DNA of 64,000 nucleotides from an archaeon (lineage in GTDB: Archaea; Iainarchaeota; Iainarchaeia; Iainarchaeales; Iainarchaeaceae): positions 8,993 through 72,992 of the forward strand of contig JBBSVV010000003.1 of NCBI GenBank assembly GCA_038046625.1, read 5' to 3'. The position numbers were made by a program, and so were the translations under genes. The notes beneath the pieces are model-generated. The model did not search any database, was not told the DNA's origin, and saw only the letters and a program-made list of their open reading frames with translations. Shown one piece after another: positions 2,471 to 31,208 of the stretch (positions are counted from its first letter, which is position 1; every line of letters starts with the position of its first letter).

Positions 2471-3124
2471 TTAAATCACGGTTGCCACGAACAACATCGT
2501 CACTGAAATCAGCCCCATGATGACCATGAGTATGAGGTTGTCTATTGTGAGTGCCTTGTCGAAGTTCTGGTAAAAGAAGTATAGTACTCCCAGGCCGAAC
2601 ACCAGTCCAAGTATCCACATTGCGTTGCTGATGAGCCCGTTTCTTCCGCCGACTCCTTTCATGTGTGCCTCGTCCATGTCCACCTGCACCTGCCTTACTG
2701 CCTCGCCGAGCTCGTTCAGTTTCACCTTCACCCGTTCGTTGAGGTCATTCACTTTCGCTATGTTGTCGCCGATTTGTTCCTGAAAGGTTTTGCTTTGCCC
2801 CGTAATGTCCCGCTCGTATTGCTTCAAATCGCTTATCACTGCCTTTGTGAGTTCTGTTCTGGATTCATGTGCGCTTGTTACGGCTTCCTCCTCAATGAAT
2901 TTTTTGAGCGTGGGTTTTTGCGTTTCCAATTCGGCCTGCACGATTTTTTTTATTTCGCCGCGCAGCAATGCAAAAGTGTCCGCCTGTCCGAGAAGCAAAA
3001 GCCTTTTTGCCTTGTCCTGTGAAACCCCGAGGTCTTTCAGGGTTTGCACTATTTTTTCTTCGCTTTCGCCTTCGCGAACCATTTTCTCTATTATCTCTAT
3101 TATGCTTGTGTCCGTTTTCGCCAT
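2471..3124 (-). CDS. Coiled-coil protein with two C-terminal TM helices
   Basis: Start MAKTDTS after a GAGGTG RBS; the upstream in-frame extension runs through a repeat element. Confidence 0.75.
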   Translation of the reverse strand: MAKTDTSIIEIIEKMVREGESEEKIVQTLKDLGVSQDKAKRLLLLGQADTFALLRGEIKKIVQAELETQKPTLKKFIEEEAVTSAHESRTELTKAVISDLKQYERDITGQSKTFQEQIGDNIAKVNDLNERVKVKLNELGEAVRQVQVDMDEAHMKGVGGRNGLISNAMWILGLVFGLGVLYFFYQNFDKALTIDNLILMVIMGLISVTMLFVATVI

Positions 3125-3137
3125 TTTTACTGCACCT

Positions 3138-3204
3138 CGCCGTTTTCGACCGGCGGTACCGATTGCCCCGCCTTCGGCGGGACTTGGCTCGCTTTGCTCG
3201 CAAT
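3138..3204 (+). repeat. Two-hairpin dispersed element, copy E1
   Basis: cgccgt-tttcga-ccggcg, gtaccg, then attgc...tc-gc-ttt-gc-tc-gcaat. Confidence 0.7.
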
Positions 3205-3215
3205 ATAGTTGCTCA

Positions 3216-3878
3216 TCATTGCACCGTAACCGTTTGCTGGAACTGGTCCACATTATTTTCCGTGTTTAGGTTAAAATAGATTGTGGTGCCGCCTTTTTGT
3301 ATCGGTATGAGCGAGTAGTCTATCTGCTTGCATTCAACAGCCTTGAGCGTTATCGTGTCTGTTTTGTTCGGCTCGGAAAAGAATCCTTTTTCGTGGTTTT
3401 CCGCTATTTTCACCTGCTTTTCCGTTGCGGTGTTGTTGCATGCTTCCACGCTGAACGCAAAGCTCTTGCCGAAGAGTATGTCGCTTGGAAAGCTCATTGT
3501 CAGGGTTATTTCCTGCTTTGCCCTTAGTACAACGAGCTTTTCGATTGTCGAGTGGAAAGGGCTCTGCACAATTATTGTTGCCTGGTTCGCGCTTATAGAG
3601 CCGGTGTAAATGCGTTGCTCCTCGTTGGGCGCAAGTGAAGCAAACATGTTCAGGTCTTTCGGTTCGCCTTCTTCCTCGCGGTATTTCACGGTTACGTTGT
3701 TGATTTGCCTGTCGGTGGTGTTTTTCAGGTAAATTTCCTTTTGGCCGTTTTCCTCGTTGAATTTTTCCTCGATTGCGAGGCCAGTGTTGAACAAAAAAAG
3801 GTATATGAGCATTATTCCGAATAATGCGTAAACCGCCAGGAAGAAGAATTTCGCTTTTTTCGCTTTTTCCGGCATCAT
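3216..3878 (-). CDS. Membrane-anchored hypothetical protein with Ig/CARDB-like extracellular part
   Basis: N-terminal TM helix, beta-rich remainder with several NxT sequons. Confidence 0.7.
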   Translation of the reverse strand: MMPEKAKKAKFFFLAVYALFGIMLIYLFLFNTGLAIEEKFNEENGQKEIYLKNTTDRQINNVTVKYREEEGEPKDLNMFASLAPNEEQRIYTGSISANQATIIVQSPFHSTIEKLVVLRAKQEITLTMSFPSDILFGKSFAFSVEACNNTATEKQVKIAENHEKGFFSEPNKTDTITLKAVECKQIDYSLIPIQKGGTTIYFNLNTENNVDQFQQTVTVQ

Positions 3879-3933
3879 TGTTTTGCATCCCTCATTTTTG
3901 CGTTTCCGTTCCATAACTTGTTTTTTGTTTATT

Positions 3934-4686
3934 TTAAGTGTTTTGTTTTCTTCTCAAGATTCCGCGCTGGAAATCCGTTATGAGTATCATTGCTGCCGCG
4001 TTCGTGTCGGGTGCGCCGTGCTTGCGGAGCTTTTTGCGTGCGAACGCGATTTTTTCGAGCAGCTCTTCCCCGTCTTTTGCGGTTACCCCGTAGGTGTCGA
4101 GTATTTCCTCTTTTTTTGTTTCAAGCAGCACATCCGCGACATCTATGCCTGTTTCCTCGAGGTTCTTGAGCTGCTGCGCGTTTTTTGCGCAGAGCAGCGC
4201 AATGAGCGTTTCATCGTGCTCGTTGAACGGTATTACTCCCGGAGAGTCAATGAGCATTGTTTGTTTGTTGATTCTCACAAATTGTACGCCTCTTGTGAAT
4301 CCGGCTGTGGGCGAGGTTCTCGCGCTTTTCCTTCCTGAGAGTGCGTTGATGATGCTGCTTTTTCCCGTGTTGGGATAACCAACTACGGCTATCTTGGTTT
4401 CGCCGGAACCGCTGAGTTTTCCAAGGGCTTCCTTGAGCCTCATTATGCCTTTCCTGTTTTTTGCGGAAACAAAAATGCTTCCCGGGAGCATGCTTTTTTC
4501 CTTTTTCATTGTGTTCAGGCTTGTGAGATCAGATTTGTTTATTACGCGGAGCAGCTTTTTTCCCTTTTCTTCAACGAGCCTTTCAAGGTGGATGTTGATG
4601 CTTTTCTGGGGGAAGCGCGCATCCAGGACCTCAATTATAATGTCCGCTTCCTTGACAAGATTTTTCACGATTTCAGAGTAGTTCAT
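3934..4686 (-). CDS. Circularly permuted GTPase, RbgA/YlqF family
   Basis: EVLDARFP, INKSDL, VSAK, GYPNTGKSS, DSPG in G4-G5-G1-G3 order. Confidence 0.92.
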   Translation of the reverse strand: MNYSEIVKNLVKEADIIIEVLDARFPQKSINIHLERLVEEKGKKLLRVINKSDLTSLNTMKKEKSMLPGSIFVSAKNRKGIMRLKEALGKLSGSGETKIAVVGYPNTGKSSIINALSGRKSARTSPTAGFTRGVQFVRINKQTMLIDSPGVIPFNEHDETLIALLCAKNAQQLKNLEETGIDVADVLLETKKEEILDTYGVTAKDGEELLEKIAFARKKLRKHGAPDTNAAAMILITDFQRGILRRKQNT

Positions 4687-4699
4687 CCGCAGGTCACTA

Positions 4700-4762
4700 C
4701 AACAAGAAATTTTGTCCGGTACTGGGCAAGGTCGAATGCATTGTGCTCGCTCCGCCCGCATT
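4700..4762 (+). repeat. Two-hairpin dispersed element, degenerate copy E2
   Basis: Starts caacaag; second stem aatgc...tc-gc-tcc-gc-cc-gcatt. Confidence 0.5.
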
Positions 4763-4768
4763 TTGAGT

Positions 4769-4999
4769 TCATTTAATTGCCCCCTTGATTATGTGTGCCG
4801 CGGCATTGAATAAGTATATGCCGCCGAGGATTATTATTGCGAACACAGCAACCACGCCTATTGGGTTTGCTTCGGAAAACAACCCGTTTTTGAGGAATGA
4901 GTTCTGCATCACGCCGTACAGCGCGAGGAGAATCATGCTTCCGAGAAGTGCGAGCAGCGCTATTGAAACCAAACTTATCTTTTTTGCCTGTTCAAGCAT
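4769..4999 (-). CDS. Small two-TM membrane protein
   Basis: Two hydrophobic helices; sits in an operon downstream of pth2. Confidence 0.7.
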   Translation of the reverse strand: MLEQAKKISLVSIALLALLGSMILLALYGVMQNSFLKNGLFSEANPIGVVAVFAIIILGGIYLFNAAAHIIKGAIK

Positions 5000-5004
5000 G
5001 TTCT

Positions 5005-5355
5005 CTAAAGCAATTTCAGGTCTTTCGTGAATTTATTGATTTCTGCTTCGGGAACAGGCCCTATTGCTATCGCGGTCGGCTCGCCAGCCTCGATTTGTGT
5101 CCTTCCAGCGTCCTTAATCAGTGCCGTGGGGAAGAGCTTTTTGAGTTTCTCGAACATTTCCAATAATTCCTTTTTGGAGTTGACTTTGAGCACAATTTTT
5201 GCCTGCCCGCTTTCCTTCCATTCCTCGACCCACTTTGGTTTTTCGCGCATGGTTTTTTCGTATGCCCCGAGCGAAGCATGTGAGCTCTGTGCGGCAATCT
5301 TCCCTGCGGACATGTTCAGGTCCTTTCGCACGATTATTACCTGCTTATAGTCCAT
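5005..5355 (-). CDS. pth2: Peptidyl-tRNA hydrolase Pth2
   Basis: KQVIIVRKDLNMSAGKIAAQSSHA, GQAKIVLK, IKDAGRTQI, IGP. Confidence 0.96.
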   Translation of the reverse strand: MDYKQVIIVRKDLNMSAGKIAAQSSHASLGAYEKTMREKPKWVEEWKESGQAKIVLKVNSKKELLEMFEKLKKLFPTALIKDAGRTQIEAGEPTAIAIGPVPEAEINKFTKDLKLL

Positions 5356-5433
5356 TCAGAATTCAACGCAAACAAAGAATATATACGTTAGCGTTGAAGG
5401 TATTGGAAAATAGGGTTGTGCTAGTTTTTTTGC

Positions 5434-5790
5434 CTATTGTGCAGAAATTATTTGGTTTATTGTGGTTATGAGTGATTCTAGTTTTGCTTTTTTTATTTTG
5501 CCTATTTTCTTTACGACAAGGGTCTTTTCTATTTTCAGGATGTTTTCGGCTTTTATGCAGCATTTGGAGTATAACTTCCCTTCTTCCAAGTCGGCGTTTA
5601 AAAGGCTTAGCGTATATTTTCCCCTGGAAATGTTTGATGTGATGCCTGCAACAAGGATGTCCTCTGAATGCCCGTTAAAATCCTCGTTGCTTATAACCGT
5701 GACCGGCCTCACCTTGTTTCCGGACTGGTTCGAGAACGGAAACGGCACAAGCAGTAAGTCCCTCTGCATTATCAAAGGTACCGGCTCCAT
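5434..5790 (-). CDS. PemK/MazF family toxin
   Basis: DLLLVPFPFS...KVRPVTVIS...VAGITS; overlaps the upstream antitoxin. Confidence 0.9.
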   Translation of the reverse strand: MEPVPLIMQRDLLLVPFPFSNQSGNKVRPVTVISNEDFNGHSEDILVAGITSNISRGKYTLSLLNADLEEGKLYSKCCIKAENILKIEKTLVVKKIGKIKKAKLESLITTINQIISAQ

Positions 5791-5999
5791 TCTTTATTGT
5801 CCTTTTTGTTATTCCAGATTTTTTCCATGGATTTCTCCGCCATTACCATCCATCCGATTTTTTCCATGCGGTTTCTCTCGAGCTTCTCCATTATCAGGTT
5901 CCTGATGAATTCTGACTTGGACAGGTAATTCTTTTTTTTGATGAAATCCTCGAGTTCTGAGGCTTCATCTTCATGAAGTTTCACAGTTATAGTTTTCAT
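5772..5999 (-). CDS. Ribbon-helix-helix antitoxin
   Basis: MKTITVKL...YLSKSEFIR RHH pattern; acidic/Trp C-terminus (KIWNNKKDNKEW). Confidence 0.85.
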   Translation of the reverse strand: MKTITVKLHEDEASELEDFIKKKNYLSKSEFIRNLIMEKLERNRMEKIGWMVMAEKSMEKIWNNKKDNKEWSRYL

Positions 6000-6029
6000 A
6001 GTAATCTTTGGGGATTACTTATTTAAATA
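6000..6029 (-). promoter_or_regulatory. TA promoter: TATA box plus palindromic operator
   Basis: tatttaaata at 6020-6029; inverted repeat agtaatc-N6-gattact at 6000-6019, directly before the antitoxin ATG. Confidence 0.7.
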
Positions 6030-6041
6030 GCTTTCTAAACT

Positions 6042-6119
6042 CTATTGCTGGTGCGGCGCGATTTTTCCCTTGCCCATTCCGAGGTCGGTGCGCACAATGA
6101 TTACTTGCTTGTAGTCCAT
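6042..6119 (-). pseudogene. Orphan 5' fragment of pth2
   Basis: Translates MDYKQVIIVRTDLGMGKGKIA, then PHQQ-stop; first 10 residues identical to the intact Pth2. Confidence 0.9.
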
Positions 6120-6173
6120 GCAAAAGAATTGCCTGAATGTGAATTTAAGGTTTTGCAGAGCGTAAGCTTCGGA

Positions 6174-6884
6174 TTATTCCAGTTTCCAGTAAATCCTTCT
6201 GTTCTCCGCGCCTTTGTTCTTGAATCCCGTGATTTTGAGTTTCCCGATTTCTTTTGTGTTGTGCACGTGCGTTCCGCCGTCCGCCTGCACGTCAAGAGTT
6301 CCTATTGAAACTATTCTCAGGGTTGGAATGTTTTTCGGCAGAACGTCCTTGAGCCTGAATAATTCAGGGCGCTGCAGCGCCTTTTCGCGTTCCTCATACG
6401 CAAGGGTAATTTCAAGGCTTTTCTGTATCGCTTCATTCGCTTTGTGCTCGAACGTTTTCAATAATTCGCGGTCGAATTCAGGCACGTTGAAATCCATTCT
6501 TGATTCTTCTTCGCCGAGCTGGTTTCCCGTGATGAGTGCGCCGATTTCCCTGTTGATTACAGCCGCCAAAATGTGCGCGGAAGTGTGCATGCGCATGTAC
6601 CTATATCTTTTCTCCCAATCAAGGATGCATTTCACTTTGTCGCCTTCTTTCAATCCGTGCTCCGAAACCTCATGGGAAATTTCTTCGGGGAACTGCTTCG
6701 CAAAAACCATTTCGTATTCCTTTGCGTTGCTGAAGGTTATTTTTCCGGTATCCGAGGGCTGTCCCCCGCCCTGCGGATAGAAAATTGTTTTGTCTAGAAC
6801 AACGAATTTTCCGTCGGTTACTTTGAGCACGGTTGCATCGCATTCTTTCGAGTAGGAATCGTCGAGGTAAATTTTTTGCGTCAT
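6174..6884 (-). CDS. alaX: Alanyl-tRNA editing protein AlaX
   Basis: TIFYPQGGGQPSDTG, MRMHTSAHIL, ADGGTHV. Confidence 0.93.
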   Translation of the reverse strand: MTQKIYLDDSYSKECDATVLKVTDGKFVVLDKTIFYPQGGGQPSDTGKITFSNAKEYEMVFAKQFPEEISHEVSEHGLKEGDKVKCILDWEKRYRYMRMHTSAHILAAVINREIGALITGNQLGEEESRMDFNVPEFDRELLKTFEHKANEAIQKSLEITLAYEEREKALQRPELFRLKDVLPKNIPTLRIVSIGTLDVQADGGTHVHNTKEIGKLKITGFKNKGAENRRIYWKLE

Positions 6885-7327
6885 TTTTTTCTCCTGCGTG
6901 TTATTAGTTTAGGTGCTGGCGGTGTGGGCCCAGGCTTTGTTGGAGGCTTTGGGATTTCCTTTTTCAAATGATTTGTTGTTCTGAGGTACATTTGCCTGAG
7001 TGCGGGATTATATCCCCATTTGTTGATTATTAGCAAAAACTTGTTTGCTATTAGTGGTTTGAGAACTTCCCGGGTTTGGTGAGTCAAGTGCCCGTTTTCA
7101 TGCAATTCCATGATTTTGCCCAGGTAGGCAAATTCGAGGCTTCGTTCCTGGCGTTCGCGGTCTGCTTCTTCTGATTCTTTGATTTTGTCGCGGAGTTCAG
7201 AGTATTTGCCGATAAGTCCCGTGAAATTCGGCACCATGCCATAATCTGTGCCATTGACTATTTGTGGTTTAACTACAGGCGTTCTTCTAAGCTCCCTGAT
7301 TTTCCTGAGGAACTCTGCCCTGTCCAT
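6881..7327 (-). CDS. Hypothetical basic protein
   Basis: ORF overlaps the alaX start; Pro/Lys/Arg-rich tail; no recognisable family. Confidence 0.6.
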   Translation of the reverse strand: MDRAEFLRKIRELRRTPVVKPQIVNGTDYGMVPNFTGLIGKYSELRDKIKESEEADRERQERSLEFAYLGKIMELHENGHLTHQTREVLKPLIANKFLLIINKWGYNPALRQMYLRTTNHLKKEIPKPPTKPGPTPPAPKLITRRRKK

Positions 7328-7369
7328 AAGAATCAGTCGTGGCGGAAAATCAGTTTAAATGAAATGCCT

Positions 7370-7768
7370 TCACTCTTCGCTTCCGTTTGTTTGTATTTCT
7401 ATTTCCCGGGCTTCCTCTTTTGCTTCGCGGGGCTCCGGCGCGGCTATCCCTTTATAGGTGATTATTTTGGTTACTCCCCTTTCACCCCAGAGGTAGGCTA
7501 TGCTTTGCTCTTCGCCCCTGGAAAGGGACAGTGTTTTTCCTTTTGCCTGGTCGTTCCCCTCTTTAAGTGTGAATAGCCTGCTGTACTCGAGCTTTGCGTT
7601 GTCCCCGGCAATGCTCAGGACCTTGAAAACGTGCTCGTGGTTCCCGTTTCCCATTACCTGGTCGAATTCCTCTTCGTTGTCCGCGGTGTAGGAAATTGTC
7701 TCTATTTTCTTTTTGAACGGGGGCCGCCAGTCCGATTCAATGGTTTTTACCTGAAAAACAGCTTTCAT
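7370..7768 (-). CDS. Hypothetical protein
   Basis: Probable start MKAVFQVK; the longer ORF extends through a repeat. Confidence 0.65.
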   Translation of the reverse strand: MKAVFQVKTIESDWRPPFKKKIETISYTADNEEEFDQVMGNGNHEHVFKVLSIAGDNAKLEYSRLFTLKEGNDQAKGKTLSLSRGEEQSIAYLWGERGVTKIITYKGIAAPEPREAKEEAREIEIQTNGSEE

Positions 7769-7823
7769 GCTATTTACTAAGTTCTTCATCGTATAAAAAA
7801 CTTTTGCTGTTTTCGCACCGGCA

Positions 7824-7877
7824 CGCCGGAAACCGCCGGCGGTACGGTGTACTATCTTCGCCTTTGGGCTCGATAGT
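7824..7877 (+). repeat. Two-hairpin dispersed element, copy E3
   Basis: cgccgg-aaaccg-ccggcg, gtacggtgt, actatc-ttc-gcc-tttg-ggc-tc-gatagt; flanked by the direct repeat cgcaccggca (7814-7823, 7886-7895). Confidence 0.85.
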
Positions 7878-7941
7878 CCATGCTCCGCACCGGCAACCAC
7901 CCCCTATATGGTTTTAAAAGCCTCGAAGATTTGCTTCTTTT

Positions 7942-9033
7942 ATGGGCATAACTTCCGTGATTGACGGCGCGGTTCAGGCAATCCATGATACTGAGAAGCG
8001 CAAGGCCCTTGTTTCTGAAAAGCTCCTGCCCCTCAAAAAAGATTCGGTTTCTTTCGAGTCGCATGAAATACCAGAGAAGCGCCTCTCGTTTCCCGTTTCC
8101 AGGTGGGTTCCGAATGGTTTGGTCGGGGGCGTTGACTCTGGCTTTGTTGCGAAGAGGCTTGCTTCGGTTGACCTGGTTTTGATCCGCGCAATGGGCGTGG
8201 TTTTCAGTTACGAGAACGGAATTGTGAAAAAAACCGATTATTTTCCAGGTTATTTCAGGTTTCCAGAGCCTCACTTGAGCAATAATGCTTTGGAGGAGGA
8301 TGAGGCCGAACAGTCAAAGTCACTGATGCGGCTTTATGAGGAAGTGAATGCCACAAAAACAATTATCAAGGAGCACAAGCCGAAGTACTGCTTCATCGAC
8401 GGCTCGATTGTGCCGCAGTACCAGGACAAGCCGCGCAAGGAATCAAAGTTAACAAAAAATTATGTTGACATAATCAAGGAGTTCGAGTCACTGTATGGGC
8501 TCGCGGAGGAAAATAACTGCACTTTGATTGCGACCGTCGAGGATTCGCGTGGCTCGAGGTTTCGCGGAATTATCCAGGATGTTGTTCTCGCGAAAGAGCC
8601 TCTTGTTGAAAAGCGCCAATTGGACGGATTGTTTGATTCCTCTTTGCTGGATTATTTTTTGTCAGTCGGCGAACGCACTTGTGCTTTCACTTACACGCAG
8701 AACATAAAGCAGCATCCCGTGCTTCACGATTTTTCCGAGTCCTGGAGCCACAGGATTTATTGCCTTTACATCAAGCCCACCCCGTTCGACAAGCCTTTGC
8801 GCGTTGAATTCATTTCGAAGGGCGATTTGAAGAAGGAGGCCGATGAGGTTGCTTCGGTTGCGTTTGCCCTGAGTTCTTTGCATCGCGAGTATGCGTATCC
8901 TTCTGTCCTGATTGAGGCGGACTTCCACGCGAAACTGAAGCAGGATGAGATTGAGATTGTTTACAACAAGATAATGGACAAGCTCGGTGCTTCCGTGAAA
9001 TTGAAGATGAGGCGCGACAACAGGCCGTTCTGA
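7942..9033 (+). CDS. nurA: DNA double-strand break repair nuclease NurA
   Basis: GGVDSG, FIDGSI, YAYPSVLIEADFHAK; lies near herA. Confidence 0.9.
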   Translation: MGITSVIDGAVQAIHDTEKRKALVSEKLLPLKKDSVSFESHEIPEKRLSFPVSRWVPNGLVGGVDSGFVAKRLASVDLVLIRAMGVVFSYENGIVKKTDYFPGYFRFPEPHLSNNALEEDEAEQSKSLMRLYEEVNATKTIIKEHKPKYCFIDGSIVPQYQDKPRKESKLTKNYVDIIKEFESLYGLAEENNCTLIATVEDSRGSRFRGIIQDVVLAKEPLVEKRQLDGLFDSSLLDYFLSVGERTCAFTYTQNIKQHPVLHDFSESWSHRIYCLYIKPTPFDKPLRVEFISKGDLKKEADEVASVAFALSSLHREYAYPSVLIEADFHAKLKQDEIEIVYNKIMDKLGASVKLKMRRDNRPF

Positions 9034-9034
9034 G

Positions 9035-9081
9035 GTAAGAAATATATAGTAAAAAGTAAGAAATGTGTATGGTGATGTAAG
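9035..9081 (+). promoter_or_regulatory. Putative vapBC promoter/operator
   Basis: gtaagaaat repeated at 9035 and 9056 around a TATATA box; GGTGA RBS. Confidence 0.5.
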
Positions 9082-9336
9082 ATGGCAAAGACAGTGCTTT
9101 CATCGAAGGGGCAGCTTATTCTTCCTGCGGAATTCAGGGAAAGACGCAAAGTGCTGCCTGGAACTGAGTTTTCGGTTCAGGAACTGCCGGGCGGCGGGTA
9201 CATGTTTATTCCCATTCCAAAGGACCCTATAAAGGCCCTCAGGGGAATTGCAAAACACTTGGATATTTCTTCAAGCGATATAAAAAAGATGAGGCGGGAA
9301 GATGATAGGCGAAGAGAGAAAAAGCTTGGTTTTTGA
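9082..9336 (+). CDS. AbrB/MazE/SpoVT-type antitoxin
   Basis: LSSKGQLILPAEFR swapped-hairpin motif. Confidence 0.9.
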   Translation: MAKTVLSSKGQLILPAEFRERRKVLPGTEFSVQELPGGGYMFIPIPKDPIKALRGIAKHLDISSSDIKKMRREDDRRREKKLGF

Positions 9337-9700
9337 CACATCGGCCATGATAAAGTATGCCAAGGATGAAGAGGGTAGCGCCAAGGTAGGCGAGTTATTC
9401 AAAAAGCATGAGTGCATTGCCAGTTCCATAAGCGCGTTTGAGATAGTCCATAAGATGGGGAGGGAAGACATAAGGGCTGCACTCTTATCAATCGCCTTTT
9501 TCGAGGAATTCTTCATTTTCATCTCTCCTGATTATGGGTTGGCAAAGAGGGCGGCTATTCTAAAATTGAAATATCCTCAGGCAAACCTTTCAATGGCGGA
9601 CGCGATAATAATTCAAACCGCAGCAGAAAGAAATGCCCGCATTGTCACGTGCGACAAAGAATGGAGAGTTGTAAAAGAGGCAGAAATAGAAATAATCTGA
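9302..9700 (+). CDS. vapC: PIN-domain VapC toxin
   Basis: VFDTSA, SAFEI, LSMADAII, IVTCD. Confidence 0.92.
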   Translation: MIGEERKSLVFDTSAMIKYAKDEEGSAKVGELFKKHECIASSISAFEIVHKMGREDIRAALLSIAFFEEFFIFISPDYGLAKRAAILKLKYPQANLSMADAIIIQTAAERNARIVTCDKEWRVVKEAEIEII

Positions 9701-9723
9701 CTTGGTTTTTTTGGTGTGTTGAA

Positions 9724-9837
9724 ATGATTTGCCCGAAGTGCGGTTCAAGCGAGATGGAGAAGATGCTCACAAAGGGAATCCAGTTCCGCTGCAGGGTCTG
9801 CGGTTACAGGGGCCCGATGAGTGGTGATTTTTCGTGA
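9724..9837 (+). CDS. Small zinc-ribbon protein (37 aa)
   Basis: MICPKCGS...FRCRVCGYRGP, two CxxC pairs. Confidence 0.7.
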   Translation: MICPKCGSSEMEKMLTKGIQFRCRVCGYRGPMSGDFS

Positions 9838-10028
9838 AGCGGGATTCAAAGAAGATTGTGAAGTTCTGTTCCCGCTGCGGCTCAACGGATTTGAAGCCGC
9901 TTTATTTCATGGAAGCAATCGACAATAGAATGCAGTGCATGGGCTGCAATGTGATTGAATTCCCTGTTGAGGGCACTGAAAAGTTTCGGAAAGAATTTTT
10001 GGAGGGAAGTAAAAATGCCGGCAAATAA
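9834..10028 (+). CDS. Small zinc-ribbon protein
   Basis: FCSRCGS...QCMGC; GTGA overlap with the previous ORF; GGTGA RBS. Confidence 0.7.
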   Translation: MKRDSKKIVKFCSRCGSTDLKPLYFMEAIDNRMQCMGCNVIEFPVEGTEKFRKEFLEGSKNAGK

Positions 10029-13000
10029 CGAGGAAATCGGCACGGTAATAAGCAGCATGGATGGCCCTTCGCCGAGCGCATTGGATGTTGTTATTTATTC
10101 CGGAAAATTGCACCGCGGCCAGTTCGTTGAATTGGATTACAGTGAAGGAACCCTGGTTGCGCTTGTAACCGATGTAGTGAAAACAAACAGGTATTTTGAG
10201 CGCGTTGAATCCGTGAAGGAGTTCGAGCGTTCCGGCACGAAATTGTTCGAGCAGTTTCCTACTGCGGAGTGGGAATACCTTGTTGCAAAAACAAGGCCGC
10301 TTGGAGTTTATGATAAGGGCTTGATTAAGCGCTCGACTTTTCCGCCTTCACCGGGCACAAAGGTTCGGGTTGCGGAGAAGGAAACGCTTGAAAAGTTTTT
10401 GGGCCTTGACCTTGAAAAGGGTTTGATGCTTGGGGAAATCGAGCACCACGGGGTTTTTGTGAAATTAAATCTCTCCCGCCTTTTCCAGAAGCATCTTGCG
10501 ATTCTCGCAATGAGCGGCGCCGGGAAAAGCTATTTGGTTTCTGTTTTGCTCGAGGAATTGTTGGAGAGGAAGAAGGAGGATGGGCGCCTCGCTGTGATTG
10601 TGATGGACGCGCACGGCGAATACCGTTCTTTTGCCGAGCCTGTTCCCGACAAGAAGCACAGCGATTTTTCCTCAAAATCCAGGTTTGTGCGCGCCTCGGA
10701 AATCCAGATTGGTGTCCCAAAGCTTTCAATCGGTTTGCTTGCCGCGCTGATTCCTGGCCTTTCGGCGCCGCAGAAGCGTGACCTCGCAAGGGTTATTGAA
10801 AGATTGCGCAAGGAAATGAAAGATGGCCTCGGGCCCTTTGACTTCAATGCGGTAAAGGCGGAGATTATGAAGGATTCTGAAATGAAGGAAGTAACAAAGA
10901 TGTCTCTAATTGGGTGGATAATGTCCCTCGAGCAGCTTCACTTGTTTGGCAAGACTGATGCGCCCGGAATCAGCGATTTGGTGAAGCCGGGGCAGCTTAC
11001 AATAATTGATTTGAGCGACGTGATTGACCTTAAGAAGAAGCAGATTATTGTCGCGTATTATGCGCGCAAACTTTTTGATGAGAGGCGCGCAAAGCGTGTT
11101 CCTCCTTTCAGTATTGTTGTCGAGGAAGCGCATCAGTTCGCACCAGAAAGGGTTTCAAAAGAAGGTTCCATCAGCAAGCACGTGATTGAAACCATTGCCA
11201 GAGAAGGAAGGAAGTTCGGTGCGAGCATCTGTCTGATTTCGCAGAGGCCGGTTAACCTTTCAACTACGGCTTTGAGCCAGTGTGTTTCACCAGAAACTCA
11301 AGTGATTCTTTCAGACGGGCAGGAGTGTGCCATATCAGATTTCGAAAATAATTATTCCAAGACAAAATTAACAAGCTGCGATATTGAGAAAGGCAAATTG
11401 GAAGGGGCATATATTTCGCATTATCAAAAAAATAATCCAAAGCAACAGGGGAAAAAATGCTTTGAAATAACTACTGTCGCAGGAAGACAATTAAAATGTA
11501 CAGGCGACCACCCAATTTGGACAAAGGGAAAAGGATGGGTTAATGCGGCGGATTTAACTTTCAGCGATAAGGTGGCTATATTGCCGACAATTAAATCATA
11601 TCCAGGGACTCCTGTTCTTGAAATATCTTCTGACTGCCTATCAGGTCTACTGCCTTCAACAATTAACAAGCAAAGATTGTTTGAAGAATTACAAGAAAAA
11701 GGTTTAATAGATAAAGAAATAGAACCTCAAAAGATATTGGCTTTGGCGAGGCTCATCGGCCATATTTTTGGCGACGGTTCCCTGCATCCGCCTTACAAAA
11801 ACAAACAGGGGCAGCATTCGCTGCGAATTACATTTTCAGGTTCGGAAGAAGATTTGCAGGAAATAAAAAACGATTTGGCATTTCTAGGCTTTAAGTCTGA
11901 TCAAAAAATAAGCAGGCAAGTCAAAACTTCATATTCAAACTTTGTAAATTTTGGAAAAAGAAAAATTCACGGAACCTCAATATGTTTCAAAACTGGCATT
12001 GTAGGGCTTTGGGCTATTTTAAGATTTTTGGGAGCTCCATTAGGGGATAAATCAAACACTAAAGTTTGTATGCCTAAGTGGATTTTAGATTCTCATATTT
12101 CCGTCAAAAGGGAATTCCTCTCATCTTTGTGCGGAAGCGAATGTTCTGCGATAAGGTGGGACGGAAAATATCCTGATAGGCCTATTCTCCCATTTTCCAA
12201 GGTTGAATCGTTAAGCGGGAGCGGGCATTTGTATGCAAATAGTCTTATTTCTATGTTTCAAGATTTTGGAGTCAAGTCAAACTTATATGTAAGAGATTAT
12301 GTGTGGAGAAAAGATGGCGCAAAAAGTCTGCAATTTATTATTTCGATAAATAGGTCGCGAAATAATTTGATTAATTTCTTGTCAAATGTTAACTATCGTT
12401 ATGCTGTTAAAAAAAGAAGTGCGGGTTTGCATGTCTTAGAATATTTAAAATGGCTCAACATAAAACTTAATCAGAAAACAGGGCTGTTCAGCGAAGTAAA
12501 TAAATCTGTCGGCGAAGTTGGTTCCAAGCAAACTTCATTGATTTATAAAATGCATAAGAAAGTTGTTGAAAACTGGGCAAGTATGGGTGTTGAAAAGTTA
12601 CGACTCGCCCCGGCAGATAAAATACCCGCTTATTCGTATTGGATAAAAGAAAAAACAGAGTCTCTTTCGGCTGGTTTAATTTGGGACGATGTAGAATATA
12701 TTGAGCCCATTGTGCTTTCTGACGTAAGAGATATAACTGTTCCAAATCATCATTGTTTTTTTGCTAACGGATTTTTGACCCATAACTGCAACACCCACAT
12801 TATTCTCCGTGTTACTAATCCTTATGATTTGGACCACATCAAGCAGACCAGCGAGGGCATTGACCAAAGGACTGTTGACATGATTACTTCTCTCAGAACA
12901 GGCGAAGCCATAATTGTGGGCGAAGCCGTGAATTATCCCGTGTTTTTCAAGGTGCGCAAAAAAACCGTGCAGGATTCGCGGCACGAAAAGTCCCTCGAGG

Positions 13001-17942: not shown

Positions 17943-18127
17943 TGAAAAAACCTTATTTTTAGCGGCATTATTTGTCTAGTATTCTCTATTGAGTTACCTT
18001 TAAAAAGGTTGATTTCAGCCTTTTTCTTTCTTGCGAGAAAGAAAAACGCTGGCGAAAAAGAAAGAGACGGGGCATATTTTTGGCCATAGAACCTTTAATT
18101 AAGTGTTTTTCACCCATTTTTTTGCAC

Positions 18128-18151
18128 GGGCCCGTAGCTCAGCCAGGATAG
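18128..18151 (+). pseudogene. Orphan tRNA 5' fragment (Arg-like)
   Basis: GGGCCCGTAGCTCAGCCAGGATAG is a canonical archaeal acceptor 5' strand plus D-loop, about 30 nt after a tttaatta TATA box; no anticodon or T arm follows. Confidence 0.8.
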
Positions 18152-18154
18152 CGC

Positions 18155-18306
18155 CCACCTCCGCAATCGAATTTTTTCCTAAGACTCGGATTTTCTCGGC
18201 TTAAACCTTTGCACACTTCAACCCCTGCTTTTGGTGCAAAGGGTTTAATGCCTCCAAAACCCGCAAGACGTCTTTCGGAAAAAATTTCATCATTTAGCGG
18301 AGGTGG
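18155..18306. repeat. Long imperfect palindrome (about 150 bp)
   Basis: Nested pairs ccacctccgc/gcggaggtgg, gaattttttcc/ggaaaaaatttc, ttaaacctttgcac/gtgcaaagggtttaa. Confidence 0.85.
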
Positions 18307-18310
18307 TCAA

Positions 18311-18424
18311 ATGGTCGAAATTCCGATTCCAAACAAAGAAGAAATAGATTTAGCAGTAGAGGCTGAAGAGTTGACGGACAGGGAACTGTGGATTCTTAGC
18401 AAGTTTGGAGGTGATTTTGAATGA
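18311..18424 (+). CDS. Small acidic protein (37 aa) coupled to the endonuclease
   Basis: GGAGGTG RBS, MVEIPIPNKEEIDLAVEAEELTDRELWILSKFGGDFE; ATGA overlap with the next gene. Confidence 0.6.
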   Translation: MVEIPIPNKEEIDLAVEAEELTDRELWILSKFGGDFE

Positions 18425-19260
18425 ATCTCGCATCGGCAATCAGCCCTCTAAAATTGTATAATAATGCTTCAGAAGTACCTGCCATTATGGGCTTTGATTT
18501 TTCGTCAGATTTGGCCGAGGTTTGCGGCATCCATGCGGGCGACGGATACCTTCGTAATGACGGAAAAAGAAGGGAGCTAGACATCAGCGGCGGCATTGAT
18601 GAAAAGGAATATTATGATTCGCATGTCGTGCCTCTTTTTGAACGAGTTTTTGGAATAAATATTACTCCAAAATTTTTTCCAAAACGTCATACTTACGGTT
18701 TTGTAATTCGCGACAGAAACATTGTTGAGTTTATGCACTCGCTTGGGTTTCCTTATGGGGCAAAAACTTTCACAGTTTCAGTTCCTGAATTTGTTTCCAA
18801 TTCCAAAAATTTGGATATACTATATAGTTTCATTAGGGGCGCTTTTGACACAGATGGTTGCCTAGCTTTTCAAAAGAAAGTGGGAAGCGGCTATAAAAGT
18901 GAAGTAAAGAGGAAGCACTCCTTTCCTGTAGTTCAGATAAGTATCTGCTCTAAACCATTTTGTGATGGGCTGTGTTCACTTTTCAGGAAAACCGGTTTTA
19001 ACTGCAAAGTTGTCATGCAGAAACCTACTTATGACTATCAACACGTGAAATATGCCTTGTATTTGAGGGGTTATTCTAATCTTAAAAGTTGGATGCGCAA
19101 CATTGGGTTCAAAAATACTTCAAAACTATCGCGCTATGAGGTTTGGGAGAAATTCGGTTTTTGTCCTACTAACATTTCTTTTGAGCAGAGAAAACAAATA
19201 TTAAATAATGAACTTGACCCCAATTCCTTCTATAAGCATGGGCTCGTCGCTAACGGATAA
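18421..19260 (+). CDS. Free-standing two-motif LAGLIDADG homing endonuclease
   Basis: LAEVCGIHAGDG and FIRGAFDTDG; no intein splicing blocks; own GGAGGTGA RBS; AT-rich. Confidence 0.92.
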   Translation: MNLASAISPLKLYNNASEVPAIMGFDFSSDLAEVCGIHAGDGYLRNDGKRRELDISGGIDEKEYYDSHVVPLFERVFGINITPKFFPKRHTYGFVIRDRNIVEFMHSLGFPYGAKTFTVSVPEFVSNSKNLDILYSFIRGAFDTDGCLAFQKKVGSGYKSEVKRKHSFPVVQISICSKPFCDGLCSLFRKTGFNCKVVMQKPTYDYQHVKYALYLRGYSNLKSWMRNIGFKNTSKLSRYEVWEKFGFCPTNISFEQRKQILNNELDPNSFYKHGLVANG

Positions 19261-19310
19261 GCACCCCGCCTTCGAAGCGGGCGATGAGGGTTCGAATCCC
19301 TCCGAGCCCG
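19240..19310 (+). tRNA. tRNA-Arg (TCG), atypical D-arm
   Basis: Acceptor gggctcg/cgagccc, anticodon arm cccgc-cttcgaa-gcggg, T arm gaggg-ttcgaat-ccctc; CCA not encoded. Confidence 0.85.
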
Positions 19311-19488
19311 CTGCACTTTCACGCAGAATCCTTGATTCTGCTGAAACCTGCACTAAAAAGAAAGAGTGCCGGAAAAAGAAAAGACCCCTGTTTCTGGCTC
19401 GGCAAGCCGTGCTTGGCCGGTTTCAATGTGGCCAGGGCTCGCTTTCTTTTAGGCAAGGAATTAATACTCGCAAGTAGTTGTATTTTTG

Positions 19489-29220: not shown

Positions 29221-29260
29221 ATGACAAGAGTCGCTGTTCTCGAGAAGGACCGTTGCATCA
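29221..29260 (+). pseudogene. Duplicate 5' end of ABCE1 (MTRVAVLEKDRCI)
   Basis: 35/40 nt identical to 29430-29469, all five differences synonymous. Confidence 0.9.
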
Positions 29261-29429: not shown

Positions 29430-31208
29430 ATGACTCGAGTAGCTGTTCTGGAAAAGGACCGTTGCATCAATGGCACGGGCTGTGATTACATATGCGGCCA
29501 CGTGTGTCCAGTGAACCGCGCGGGAAAGGACTGCATTGTTCTAGATGAGGTTACAAACAAGCCCGTCATCAGCGAGGAGTTATGCATCGGCTGCAACATA
29601 TGCGTAATTAAATGCCCCGTGGATTGCATTTACATCGAGAACCTTGTCCAGGAACTGAACGAGAATCCTGTGCATCGCTTCGGCGAGAACGCGTTCAGGT
29701 TCTACAGGCTCCCCACAATAAGGAACGGAGAAGTAGTTGGGTTGATTGGCAGGAACGGAATAGGAAAAAGCACTATCCTGAAAATAATTTCTGGCCAGCT
29801 GGTTCCAAATTTGGGGGATTACAATTCAAAAGGCTCTTACGATTCGGTGATAAATTTTTTCAAGGGGAAGGAATTGCAGCGGCTTTTTTCCTCGCTGAAA
29901 GACAAGCGGATAAAGGTTTCTTACAAGCCGCAGAACATAACTGATTTGCCCAAGGCGGCGAAAGGCACTGTGCGCGAACTCCTGAAAAAAACCGATGAGC
30001 GCAAAAAACTTTCCGAGGTTTCGGAGTTGCTGGGCCTCGGAAAAATTTTGGACAGGGAACTCTCGCACTTGAGCGGAGGAGAATTGCAAAGGGTTGCGAT
30101 TGCCGCGGCCTCATTGAAGGATGCTGATTTGTATGCTTTTGATGAGCCAACTTCTTATTTGGATGTGAGGGAGCGCCTCAATGCCTCCAAGGTTTTGCGC
30201 GGTCTTGCGGAATCCGGAAAGGCGGTTGTTTTGATTGAGCATGACCTCGCGGTTCTTGATTACTTGAGCGATTATGTGCACCTTCTTTACGGAAAAAAAT
30301 CGGTTTACGGAATAGTTTCAAAGCCGAAGAGCGTTCGCAATGGCATTAACGAGTTTTTGGAGGGCTTTGTGAAGGATGAGAATGTTCGGTTCAGGAGCAC
30401 AGAGCTGAAATTTGAGGTCAAGCCTTCCACGGATTTCAGGAAAAAGAAAGTTATTGCTAGCTACCCGGAACTCAAAAAGTCCTTCAAGGGATTTTCCCTC
30501 GAGGCTGAGGCGGGGGATTTGCGCGAGGCCGAGGTTCTGGGAATAATGGGCCCCAATGCAATAGGCAAAACGACTTTCGTGAAGATGCTTGCCTCCGTTG
30601 AGAAGCCAGATTCAGGGAAGATTGATTTTTCCATGCATGTTTCCTACAAGCCACAGTACCTTGTGCCTGAAAAGGGCGTTACTGTTGGTGATTTTATTGA
30701 TTCTCAGGACCTTGATCTCTCGGTTTTCAAGAATGAGGTTGACCGAAGGTTGGCAATTACAGAGCTGGAAAATCACTTGCTTGAGGAATTGAGTGGCGGC
30801 GAGCTCCAGAAGATTGCTGTCGGAGTGGCGCTTTCGCGCACGAATTGCGAGCTCGTTCTTTTGGATGAACCAACCGCTTTTGTTGATGTTGAAGATAGGC
30901 TGAACATGGCTGATGCAATCCGTTCCGTAACAGATGCGAAAAAGAAGATTTGCATGGTTGTTGACCACGACATTTTGTTCCAGGATTATGTTTCTGACAG
31001 GTTGATGGTTTTTTCTGGCGAGCCCTCCGTGAAGGGCTTTGCGGGCGCCGCAATGTCAATGCATGACGGGATGAATTCTTTCCTCAAATCGGTTGGAATT
31101 TCTTTCAGGCGCGACCCGGAAAGTGGAAGGCCGCGTGCAAACAAGTTGCATTCGCAGCTCGACCAGGCGCAGAAGAAGAAAGGTGAGTATTACTATCTCG
31201 TGGATTGA
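29430..31208 (+). CDS. rli: Ribosome recycling ATPase ABCE1 (Rli1)
   Basis: N-terminal FeS cysteines, GRNGIGKS, LSGGELQ twice, GPNAIGKT, RRDPESGRPRANK. Confidence 0.97.
   Translation: MTRVAVLEKDRCINGTGCDYICGHVCPVNRAGKDCIVLDEVTNKPVISEELCIGCNICVIKCPVDCIYIENLVQELNENPVHRFGENAFRFYRLPTIRNGEVVGLIGRNGIGKSTILKIISGQLVPNLGDYNSKGSYDSVINFFKGKELQRLFSSLKDKRIKVSYKPQNITDLPKAAKGTVRELLKKTDERKKLSEVSELLGLGKILDRELSHLSGGELQRVAIAAASLKDADLYAFDEPTSYLDVRERLNASKVLRGLAESGKAVVLIEHDLAVLDYLSDYVHLLYGKKSVYGIVSKPKSVRNGINEFLEGFVKDENVRFRSTELKFEVKPSTDFRKKKVIASYPELKKSFKGFSLEAEAGDLREAEVLGIMGPNAIGKTTFVKMLASVEKPDSGKIDFSMHVSYKPQYLVPEKGVTVGDFIDSQDLDLSVFKNEVDRRLAITELENHLLEELSGGELQKIAVGVALSRTNCELVLLDEPTAFVDVEDRLNMADAIRSVTDAKKKICMVVDHDILFQDYVSDRLMVFSGEPSVKGFAGAAMSMHDGMNSFLKSVGISFRRDPESGRPRANKLHSQLDQAQKKKGEYYYLVD

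Follow-up and report, generated by a model that had tools for sequence, protein, structure and literature searches.

The window analysed here is a stretch of 64,000 nucleotides from a groundwater archaeon with a genome of ~1 Mb (source genome, G000; assembly of 986 kb in 57 contigs, 85% complete). At the locus of pth2, which encodes a peptidyl-tRNA hydrolase, it contains a toxin-antitoxin (TA) pair directly upstream of the intact gene and, upstream of that pair, an orphan second copy of the pth2 start. Coordinates at this locus are window positions on the minus strand, on which the order is alaX, a promoter-like stretch, the orphan pth2 start, a ribbon-helix-helix (RHH) antitoxin gene, a MazF/PemK toxin gene, a hairpin with a TATA box and the intact pth2 (Table 1). 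The orphan begins with an ATG at 6119, 764 nt from that of the intact gene, and reads MDYKQVIIVRTDLGMGKGKIA followed by PHQQ and a stop codon; a repeat finder paired 5318-5361 with 6082-6125 (44 nt, 80% identity). Within codons 1 to 10, 5/30 bases differ between orphan and intact copy (TAC/TAT, CAA/CAG, ATC/ATA, ATT/ATC and CGC/CGA), all synonymously. The orphan, the spacing and the silent differences had been described in an earlier sequence-only reading of the locus, as had a TA pair, an operator palindrome and a TATATA box within a hairpin between the two copies, and all of them were confirmed by the coordinates and by repeat-finder, Pfam and inverted-repeat searches.

The antitoxin and toxin genes overlap by 19 nt, and their products scored above the Pfam cut-offs of 20.5 bits for PF01402 and 23.1 bits for PF02452. 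A PemK/MazF-family toxin is preceded on the same strand by a small DNA-binding antitoxin with which it is also paired elsewhere, and a palindromic operator candidate is positioned between the cassette TATA box and the RHH start codon. As judged from these domain matches and motifs, the RHH-MazF pair is a type II TA cassette, self-contained with its own TATA box and predicted operator. The second TATATA box, ahead of the intact pth2, is enclosed by hairpin arms at 5362-5373 and 5387-5398 (12 nt, 92% complementary). No integrase or transposase was present among the open reading frames of window positions 3000-8500 (list of open reading frames and Pfam), as the sequence-only reading had also stated, and Rfam gave no match in 4700-7000; loci L036 and L071 gave a sub-threshold snoRNA match only.

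Table 1. Features of the pth2 locus in window coordinates
Feature	Positions	Strand	Description
alaX (AlaX-type editing protein)	6174..6884	-	236 aa; PF07973 1e-14, PF01411 1.5e-11; 87% amino acid identity to same-genus genome G001; upstream neighbour
Remnant of pth2 promoter of cassette-free type ("class B")	6120..6173	-	54-nt spacer; TTAAATT at 6148-6142, ~25 nt before orphan ATG
Orphan pth2 start, codons 1-21	6057..6119	-	Reading frame continues to TAG at 6044-6042
Truncated left frame of cassette	6019..6056	-	CCGCACCAGCAA motif, 17-nt spacer, TTTAAATA box (6027-6020)
Inverted repeat GTAATC-N6-GATTAC, probable RHH operator	6001..6018	-	Between TTTAAATA box and RHH ATG; kept in G010 cassette
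RHH (CopG-type) antitoxin	5772..5999	-	75 aa; PF01402 22.9 bits; DUF6290 27.2 bits; 84% identity to G010 copy
MazF/PemK-type toxin	5434..5790	-	118 aa; PF02452 48.4 bits over 106/118 aa; 81% identity to G010 copy
Left part (L) of repeat, cassette-linked	5399..5440	-	Aligns with L part of G010 repeat copies
Repeat core (O), TTCAACGCTAACGTATATATTC	5377..5398	-	22 nt; holds TATA box for pth2; pattern search and nhmmer
Terminal right half (Rt) of repeat	5356..5376	-	pth2 ATG 21 nt past core
Intact pth2	5005..5355	-	116 aa; PF01981 E=2e-43; divergent patch 5266-5310 (codons 16-30)

A repeat-bounded cassette slot before pth2

The limits of the cassette were read from two comparisons. Homology with an RHH-MazF cassette in genome G010 extends from ~6056, at a CCGCAC motif, to 5377, the end of the repeat core, and includes the TATA box, the operator and both genes (68 to 75 identical positions per 90 alignment columns); neither flank aligns. 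Homology with G001, a genome of the same genus whose Pth2 is 91% identical to that of the source genome, covers the downstream genes, pth2 and, within the repeat, the right half and the core, ending at 5399-5401. Over 5311-5399, which comprises the core, the right half and pth2 codons 1 to 15, only 6/89 positions are mismatched (93% identity), and yet G001 carries a different TA pair and no orphan. These end points indicate that the L part of the repeat moves with the cassette, and the continuity with G001 that the core, right half and pth2 start stay with the locus. As the promoter and pth2 start are common to genomes with different cargo, they belong to the locus, and the TA cassette ends within the repeat. 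The earlier proposal that a replacement promoter and 5′ end had been delivered as part of the TA element was, hence, not upheld.

Its view of the TA pair as a delivered module fared better. The RHH-MazF pair was found in seven other DPANN assemblies (loci L036-L042), always as adjacent genes, with 56 to 84% identity and never beside pth2, a distribution that supports its classification as mobile cargo. A second RHH-MazF-like pair of the source genome (locus L002, contig C31, ~9000-10500) is 29 to 36% identical and has no repeat; behind it lies a small pair similar to the flanking ones in the G010 array described below.

The repeat itself consists of the left part L, the 22-nt core O with its TATA box and a right half, with ~60 nt conserved. 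A pattern search for the core in 196 genomes from 73 genera of the order gave 37 matches in 10 genomes, all within four genera of a single family, that of the source genome (23 genomes only), and the reversed pattern, used as a control, gave 0. The number of copies ranged from 1 (G000 and G001) to 13 (G002) per genome. In the source assembly, the copy before pth2 was the sole significant nhmmer match (E=1.5e-12); no second copy was detected by this method, the next match (E=0.23) being near a contig end. The repeat could be aligned over the pth2 promoters of eight genomes and four array copies in G010.

Among 35 unique repeat sites in the compared loci, 15 were of a terminal form, 10 of an internal form and 10 degenerate or different. 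The terminal form has a TTTGTTTGCGTTGAA-like right half and in 11/15 cases is followed by an ATG 20 to 23 nt past the core; the gene behind it was pth2 in seven genomes (G000, G001, G002, G003, G007, G010 and G014) and cytidylyltransferase-like in two. In the latter cases (L052, contig C25 of G007; L069, contig C103 of G002), the repeat lies 22 nt before a gene whose product starts MT.VLAFGTFDLLHPGH..., with no cassettes upstream. The right half of the internal form ends in GTTGAAGGGAG followed by a T-run and pairs with the left part in a stem of 8 to 13 bp with a loop of ~25 nt. As these two right-half classes indicate, the terminal form of the repeat is promoter-like and the internal form is a hairpin; position suggests that the terminal form most likely serves as the promoter of the gene behind it, here pth2. 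The terminal and internal sequences separate 9 nt ahead of the GTTGAA arm, and the joint therefore seems to be central rather than at G|TT.

Arrays bounded by the repeat were seen in several relatives. A contig of G010 (L036) carries a PIN gene, a small pair, the RHH-MazF pair and another small pair, each followed by a ~60-nt repeat; in G003, a zinc-ribbon gene is preceded by an internal copy and followed by a terminal one and then pth2; and in G002 (assembly 92% complete), ~130 nt and a full internal copy separate alaX from two or more pairs, another contig having pth2 and its terminal copy at its end. A PF00589 survey detected no integrase that tracks the repeat: G000 and G002 have one match each, of the Xer-like kind found in 37/41 genomes, and that of G000 is on a contig other than that of pth2.

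The left end of the cassette is defined by a conserved frame, CGCACCGGCAA, which in the four left ends read lies 15 to 17 nt ahead of the TATA box of the cassette; these ends include those of three unrelated TA cassettes (G001, G011 and G007). The same frame follows internal repeat copies in G002 and G010, where the spacers read were 17 and 21 nt, and its version in the source genome is CCGCACCAGCAA. The GCCGCAC at the end of the orphan matches this frame and not pth2; it had been taken for pth2 codons 22 to 24, and its reassignment leaves 6119-6057, or 21 codons, as the pth2-derived part of the orphan. The left ends of G000, G001 and G011 are without the repeat core and the first ~60 nt of the internal right half, with the frame adjoining the alaX stop codon in G001 and G011 and the orphan in G000; G007 retains a complete but degenerate left repeat copy. 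An alternative placement of the left end at the TTTTAGAAAG stretch of the repeat was ruled out by the G010 alignment, which places the CGCACCGGCAA frame there.

Variation of cargo at the same site was examined with a Pth2 search, which gave a match in 40/41 related genomes; the best 30 loci (the source genome and 29 relatives) were compared. alaX was present within 1.5 kb upstream of pth2 in 9/29 relatives, with gaps of 66, 656, 672, 678, 687, 690, 727, 915 and 1039 nt, the 66-nt gap in G005 being the empty state. A small two-gene TA pair was present directly before pth2, on the same strand, in 8/30 loci, a count of related genomes that are not independent samples and whose kinship it ignores. 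The toxins were PemK in one (G000), PIN in six (G001, G011, G008, G022, G031 and G013) and ParE-like, below the Pfam cut-off, in one (G007). In G001, an AbrB/MazE-type antitoxin and a PIN toxin take the place of RHH-MazF, which occurs before pth2 in the source genome only among the compared loci. Other genes in the slot encode a cyclase, a zinc-ribbon protein and membrane proteins; the expectation that relatives would carry other cargo was thus borne out by the AbrB-PIN pair, the ParE-like pair and the zinc-ribbon gene. The putative cyclase (205 aa; PF04199, 7.5e-29) is in the alaX-pth2 gap of L018, L019 and L023, all from one genus. The repeat site precedes pth2 in eight genomes, in degenerate form in G011, and the orphan is found in G000 only.

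In total, 11 PIN and 3 PemK matches were detected in the 986 kb of the source assembly. Set beside ~14 toxin genes in 986 kb, TA pairs in 8/30 pth2 loci indicate that the site is strongly enriched, perhaps through four or five acquisitions of TA pairs. One of the PIN-domain genes lies in the window ~3.5 kb from the locus (9329-9676, plus strand; C3:18321-18668; 57.5 bits).

Breakpoints in natural populations coincided with these limits. Unitig ends in two metagenomes fell at 6176, the alaX stop, at 5399 (run X8) and at 5312-5316 (runs X7 and X8). A contig from run X8 (record 25) carries 5312-5399 with 0 differences and, after 65 nt, an inverted and diverged RHH-like gene (5877-6035, 35 differences); this contig is from a co-occurring strain with other cargo at the same joint. 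In two groundwater runs, the segment 5961-6037, comprising the RHH promoter, operator and first codons, had summed depths of 171 and 89 against 3 to 9 elsewhere, and many other contigs matching it diverge just upstream of the TATA box. The high depth indicates that the TA promoter module is common to many more abundant organisms there.

Origin of the orphan start

Over 66 nt, the orphan and the intact start are identical at 44 positions (67%), with a longest exact shared run of 8 nt. The differences amount to 10 synonymous changes and 4 replacements, and at the 4 replacement sites the orphan carries residues common in relatives. No frameshift or stop interrupts its 21 codons, and, apart from the intact gene, it is the one pth2-like match of the assembly (E=9.9e-5; 986 kb searched). 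The pth2 promoters of the relatives, compared over 130 nt upstream, fall into two types. In the first, a ttaaatt(c) box precedes the pth2 ATG by ~30 nt; this type is found in most genera (L008, L010, L015, L017-L021, L023 and L025) and before the orphan. The second is the sequence before the intact pth2 of the source genome and is common to G001, G002, G003, G007, G010 and G014, with a degenerate version in G011. The promoters upstream of orphan and intact copy are, hence, unrelated to each other. The nearest match found for the orphan together with its upstream 54 nt was the promoter and pth2 start of G013 (79% over 89 nt). The undecayed state of the orphan, its mostly silent differences and its residues shared with relatives argue for two alleles that each evolved as working genes rather than for duplication in situ, and with the unrelated promoters they mark the two segments as coming from different lineages. 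The orphan is outside the cassette system and is preceded by a pth2 promoter of the older, cassette-free kind.

The orphan had no counterpart in relatives. A six-frame motif scan of 35 loci (the 30 pth2 loci among them) and 11 metagenome loci detected no second Pth2 start outside the source genome, and in no relative examined were two pth2 copies seen at the locus, so that the pair of full-length paralogues that would have spoken for simple duplication was not encountered. A metagenome scan with Pth2 detected no further orphan and no allele closer than 79%.

A possible joint was detected in the cassette frame. The frame of G007, GGGAAAATGGCTCCGCAC, agrees at 14/18 positions, by hand count, with a composite of relatives for pth2 codons 18 to 23 (GGG AAA ATC GCG GCG CAG), and the orphan-cassette joint of the source genome (6040-6075 region) falls inside this pth2-like 18-nt stretch. 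Frames at other loci (contig C29 of G002 and contig C58 of G010) keep the CGCACCGGCAA part only, the pth2-like 18-mer being present at the pth2-locus frame (L009, G007).

We consider it rather probable that the region before pth2 is a slot for swappable TA cassettes and that the orphan is a scar of short-homology recombination between a cassette-free and a cassette-bearing allele. The RHH-MazF cassette would occupy a repeat-defined slot directly upstream of pth2, with cassettes being swapped by recombination within or at the repeat. The orphan would have formed when a cassette-free allele, with alaX, promoter and pth2, recombined with a cassette-bearing one, one joint being the short homology between frame and pth2 (codons 18 to 23) and the other an ordinary homologous crossover. 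The route could have taken any of three courses. A linear fragment comprising frame, cassette, repeat and pth2 start may have entered a cassette-free genome, anchored in pth2, by homology-facilitated illegitimate recombination (variant a); looping-out across the 18-nt similarity may have released this segment as a circle, with one Campbell-type crossover within the pth2 start then integrating it (variant b); or a cassette-free allele may have entered a cassette-bearing genome, with its left crossover in alaX and a premature right crossover in the pth2-like frame (variant c). All three variants give the same product, and the data are compatible with import of either the cassette or the orphan. 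Under variants a and b the TA pair would have come in together with a new promoter and start, as in the sequence-only reading; variant c is the opposite of that idea.

Two observations bear on direction. A mosaic breakpoint had been anticipated near the GKIA codons of the intact pth2 and was found as a 45-nt patch, 5266-5310, with 21/45 mismatches to G001; upstream the mismatches are 6/89 and downstream ~15%. This patch suggests foreign DNA in the intact start and favours variants a or b. Over pth2 nt 30 to 66 (36 nt, partly overlapping the patch), the source genome is closest to two genomes of another genus (identities of 0.83 and 0.78), the values for all other relatives being 0.47 to 0.69 and that for G001 0.61. 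The orphan-free left end common to G001 and G011 indicates a cassette-bearing genus ancestor and favours variant c. An imported tract on the alaX side was sought and could not be defined, mismatches to G001 being unevenly spread, with 10 within the final 60 nt, 1 within the adjacent 60 nt and a rise to 7 to 10 per 30 nt at the 5′ end. Adjoining alaX is a gene for a 148-aa protein (6881-7327, minus strand) that has no Pfam match and is 36% identical between G000 and G001; its neighbours, alaX and a gene for a 176-aa protein, are 87% and 96.6% identical to those of G001. The 148-aa protein is either hypervariable or replaced.

Several points weigh against a recombination scar in a cassette slot. 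Measured against G001, the orphan and intact starts are about equally distant: 27/30 and 28/30 positions agree in the first 30 nt, and 23/36 and 22/36 in the 36 nt that follow. The cassette frame resembles pth2 over a short stretch, and chance could account for this. The 45-nt patch follows from neither direction without a further event or a mosaic donor, and entry of the cassette into a cassette-free genome implies an earlier allele replacement, given the left end of G001 and G011. The promoter role of the terminal form is what we infer from its position and TATA box, and its hairpin, strong in the source genome at -9.0 kcal/mol, mostly has weak values of -0.8 to -5.0 in the other terminal copies. 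Finally, no repeat-specific recombinase was found in the PF00589 survey, and plain homologous recombination between ~60-nt copies would also fit; cassettes could be moved by the Xer-like enzyme, by an enzyme acting in trans or by such recombination between repeats.

A broader proposal builds on variant b. Here an integrase-less cassette system of DPANN archaea would use one repeat of ~60 to 100 nt as terminator-like hairpin, essential-gene promoter and swap joint, and cassette, promoter and gene start would re-enter cassette-free genomes by Campbell-type recombination. Loop-out through the pth2-like 18-mer would always rebuild the essential gene and leave a start stub with silent differences; the same footprint at abce1 in the window might then reflect a general, recombinase-free invasion of essential-gene starts by selfish cassettes. 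We regard this extension as tentative, and on balance doubtful. The first 40 nt of abce1 are present at 29221-29260 and 29430-29469, 209 nt apart, with 88% identity, five synonymous differences and an identical run over the last 16 nt. The sequence-only reading had assigned one process to pth2, abce1 and tRNA-Arg: the abce1 part stood, in that its start is duplicated with silent differences, and the tRNA-Arg stub was not recovered in one repeat search of 18000-19400 (seed 8, minimum of 20 nt).

That reading involved a discrete element, comprising TA pair, promoter and pth2 start, that inserts site-specifically in pth2 and replaces its start, with the same happening at abce1 and tRNA-Arg. The layout of orphan start, cargo, new promoter and new start would be as expected for such an element, as would the abce1 duplication and the mosaic of the intact pth2 near the joint. 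We nevertheless think it unlikely, as in other genomes the cassette stops at the repeat core, with different sequence to its right, the promoter and codons 1 to 15 are 93% the same in a genome with other cargo and no orphan, in seven further genomes pth2 follows this promoter form and there is no orphan, no integrase is nearby and the two copies are without a long identical core. A long target-site or tandem duplication of the pth2 start in situ, followed by decay of the upstream copy, would also leave an insert flanked by a direct repeat. It is very unlikely, since a copy only 67% identical over 66 nt would not be expected to remain free of frameshifts and stops over 21 codons, the silent differences of codons 1 to 10 and the family-usual residues are the pattern of two working alleles, the two copies follow unrelated promoter types and no relative examined has two copies.

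A functional coupling would explain the cargo differently: translation-stalling toxins might raise the need for peptidyl-tRNA hydrolase, and read-through might co-regulate TA pair and pth2. At least four kinds of TA pair before pth2 in 8/30 loci, including four genomes without the repeat (G008, G013, G022 and G031), and the strong enrichment over the ~14 such toxin genes of the source assembly point this way. As the slot also holds non-TA cargo, pth2 has its own TATA box in every arrangement and the genomes compared are related, we consider such coupling quite unlikely as the explanation of the locus. Least credible is an assembly chimera of cassette-free and cassette-bearing strains. Both kinds of allele seem to coexist in the aquifer, to judge from the unitig branch points at 6176, 5399 and 5312. 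However, at least 96% of sampled words of 4900-6400 were present in six public runs from two studies, and this stretch is covered by single contigs of two runs from different studies, which show 0 and 5 differences to it; the run with 0 may be the source sample. These independently assembled contigs indicate that the arrangement is real DNA and dispose of the artefact that had been named as a possible objection, and the exact overlap at the joint is far below the word length of any assembler. A swappable cassette slot with a recombination scar, hence, remains our preferred account.

Comparison with known systems

Integron arrays and clusters of attC sites lacking integron-integrases (CALINs) have been described in archaeal metagenome-assembled genomes, where TA cassettes make up 10.5% of cassette proteins with a functional prediction (Ghaly et al. 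2022, PMC9668308). These systems resemble the present one in their small cassettes, often TA pairs with their own promoters, in same-strand arrays, in conserved imperfect inverted repeats between the cassettes, often with no integrase nearby, and in sites more alike within than between lineages. Same-strand arrays with cassettes between repeat sites were seen here in G010 and G002, and the source genome has one cassette and one site. The site differs from attC (R''-L''...L'-R', GTTRRRY, 57 to 141 nt, with structure kept) in having outer arms only, TTCAAC/GTTGAA, a 25-nt spacer and ~60 nt of kept sequence. In place of an integron IntI there is the single Xer-like PF00589 match of each of G000 and G002, in assemblies 85% and 92% complete, and, unlike integron sites, the terminal form of the repeat would also serve a housekeeping gene as its promoter. 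The literature search made here gave no description of a comparable repeat from DPANN archaea beyond that integron report, whose supplementary site lists could include these genomes.

Homology-facilitated illegitimate recombination and displacement with orphaned gene ends are known from Rhs C-terminal displacement and from effector-immunity arrays of the Vibrio type VI secretion system, as described by Kirchberger et al. 2017 (PMC5361080). In the cases presented there, as in the event proposed here, an anchor of full homology is paired with a joint of short homology, modules that come in leave parts of resident genes orphaned, and between orphan and working copy the differences are those of alleles from separate lineages. 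The present case differs in that the 5′ start and promoter of an essential single-copy gene are affected and not a 3′ toxin end, and in its archaeal host and repeat-defined cassette slot.

Integrative elements that target gene ends, such as those with tRNA-gene integrases in archaea and bacteria, carry a replacement copy of the target end. A partial target copy on one side of the insert and an intact end on the other, by which the target remains functional, are likewise found at pth2. However, no integrase accompanies this insert, no identical att core joins the copies (44/66 nt), the 5′ and not the 3′ end is involved, and the end that would have been supplied is linked to the locus in relatives and not to an element. 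Host Xer recombinases move the pdif modules of Acinetobacter plasmids, which are small and include TA pairs. The present cassettes are comparable in being small modules bounded by sites, with no recombinase beyond the housekeeping Xer, and differ in that the core has no recognisable 11-6-11 dif-like layout and that the site orientation is direct. The TA pair itself resembles MazEF/PemIK in its PemK-fold toxin encoded after a small overlapping antitoxin gene and in the palindrome in its promoter; unlike in MazEF/PemIK, the antitoxin has an RHH and not an AbrB/MazE fold, and its toxin-antitoxin action is predicted.

The more notable results are the repeat-bounded, promoter-embedded slot before pth2 and the enrichment of TA pairs there, the orphan being a probable one-off scar. 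Accessory genes can evidently be parked and exchanged directly before an essential translation gene in a genome of ~1 Mb without disabling that gene, and one clade-specific repeat seems to unite the roles of promoter, cassette limit and recombination joint. Should the short-homology route prove general, it would explain recurrent gene-start duplications with silent differences in this genome and provide a model for the spread of cassettes without an integrase. The enrichment before pth2 across the order offers a testable link between translation-targeting toxins and peptidyl-tRNA recycling.

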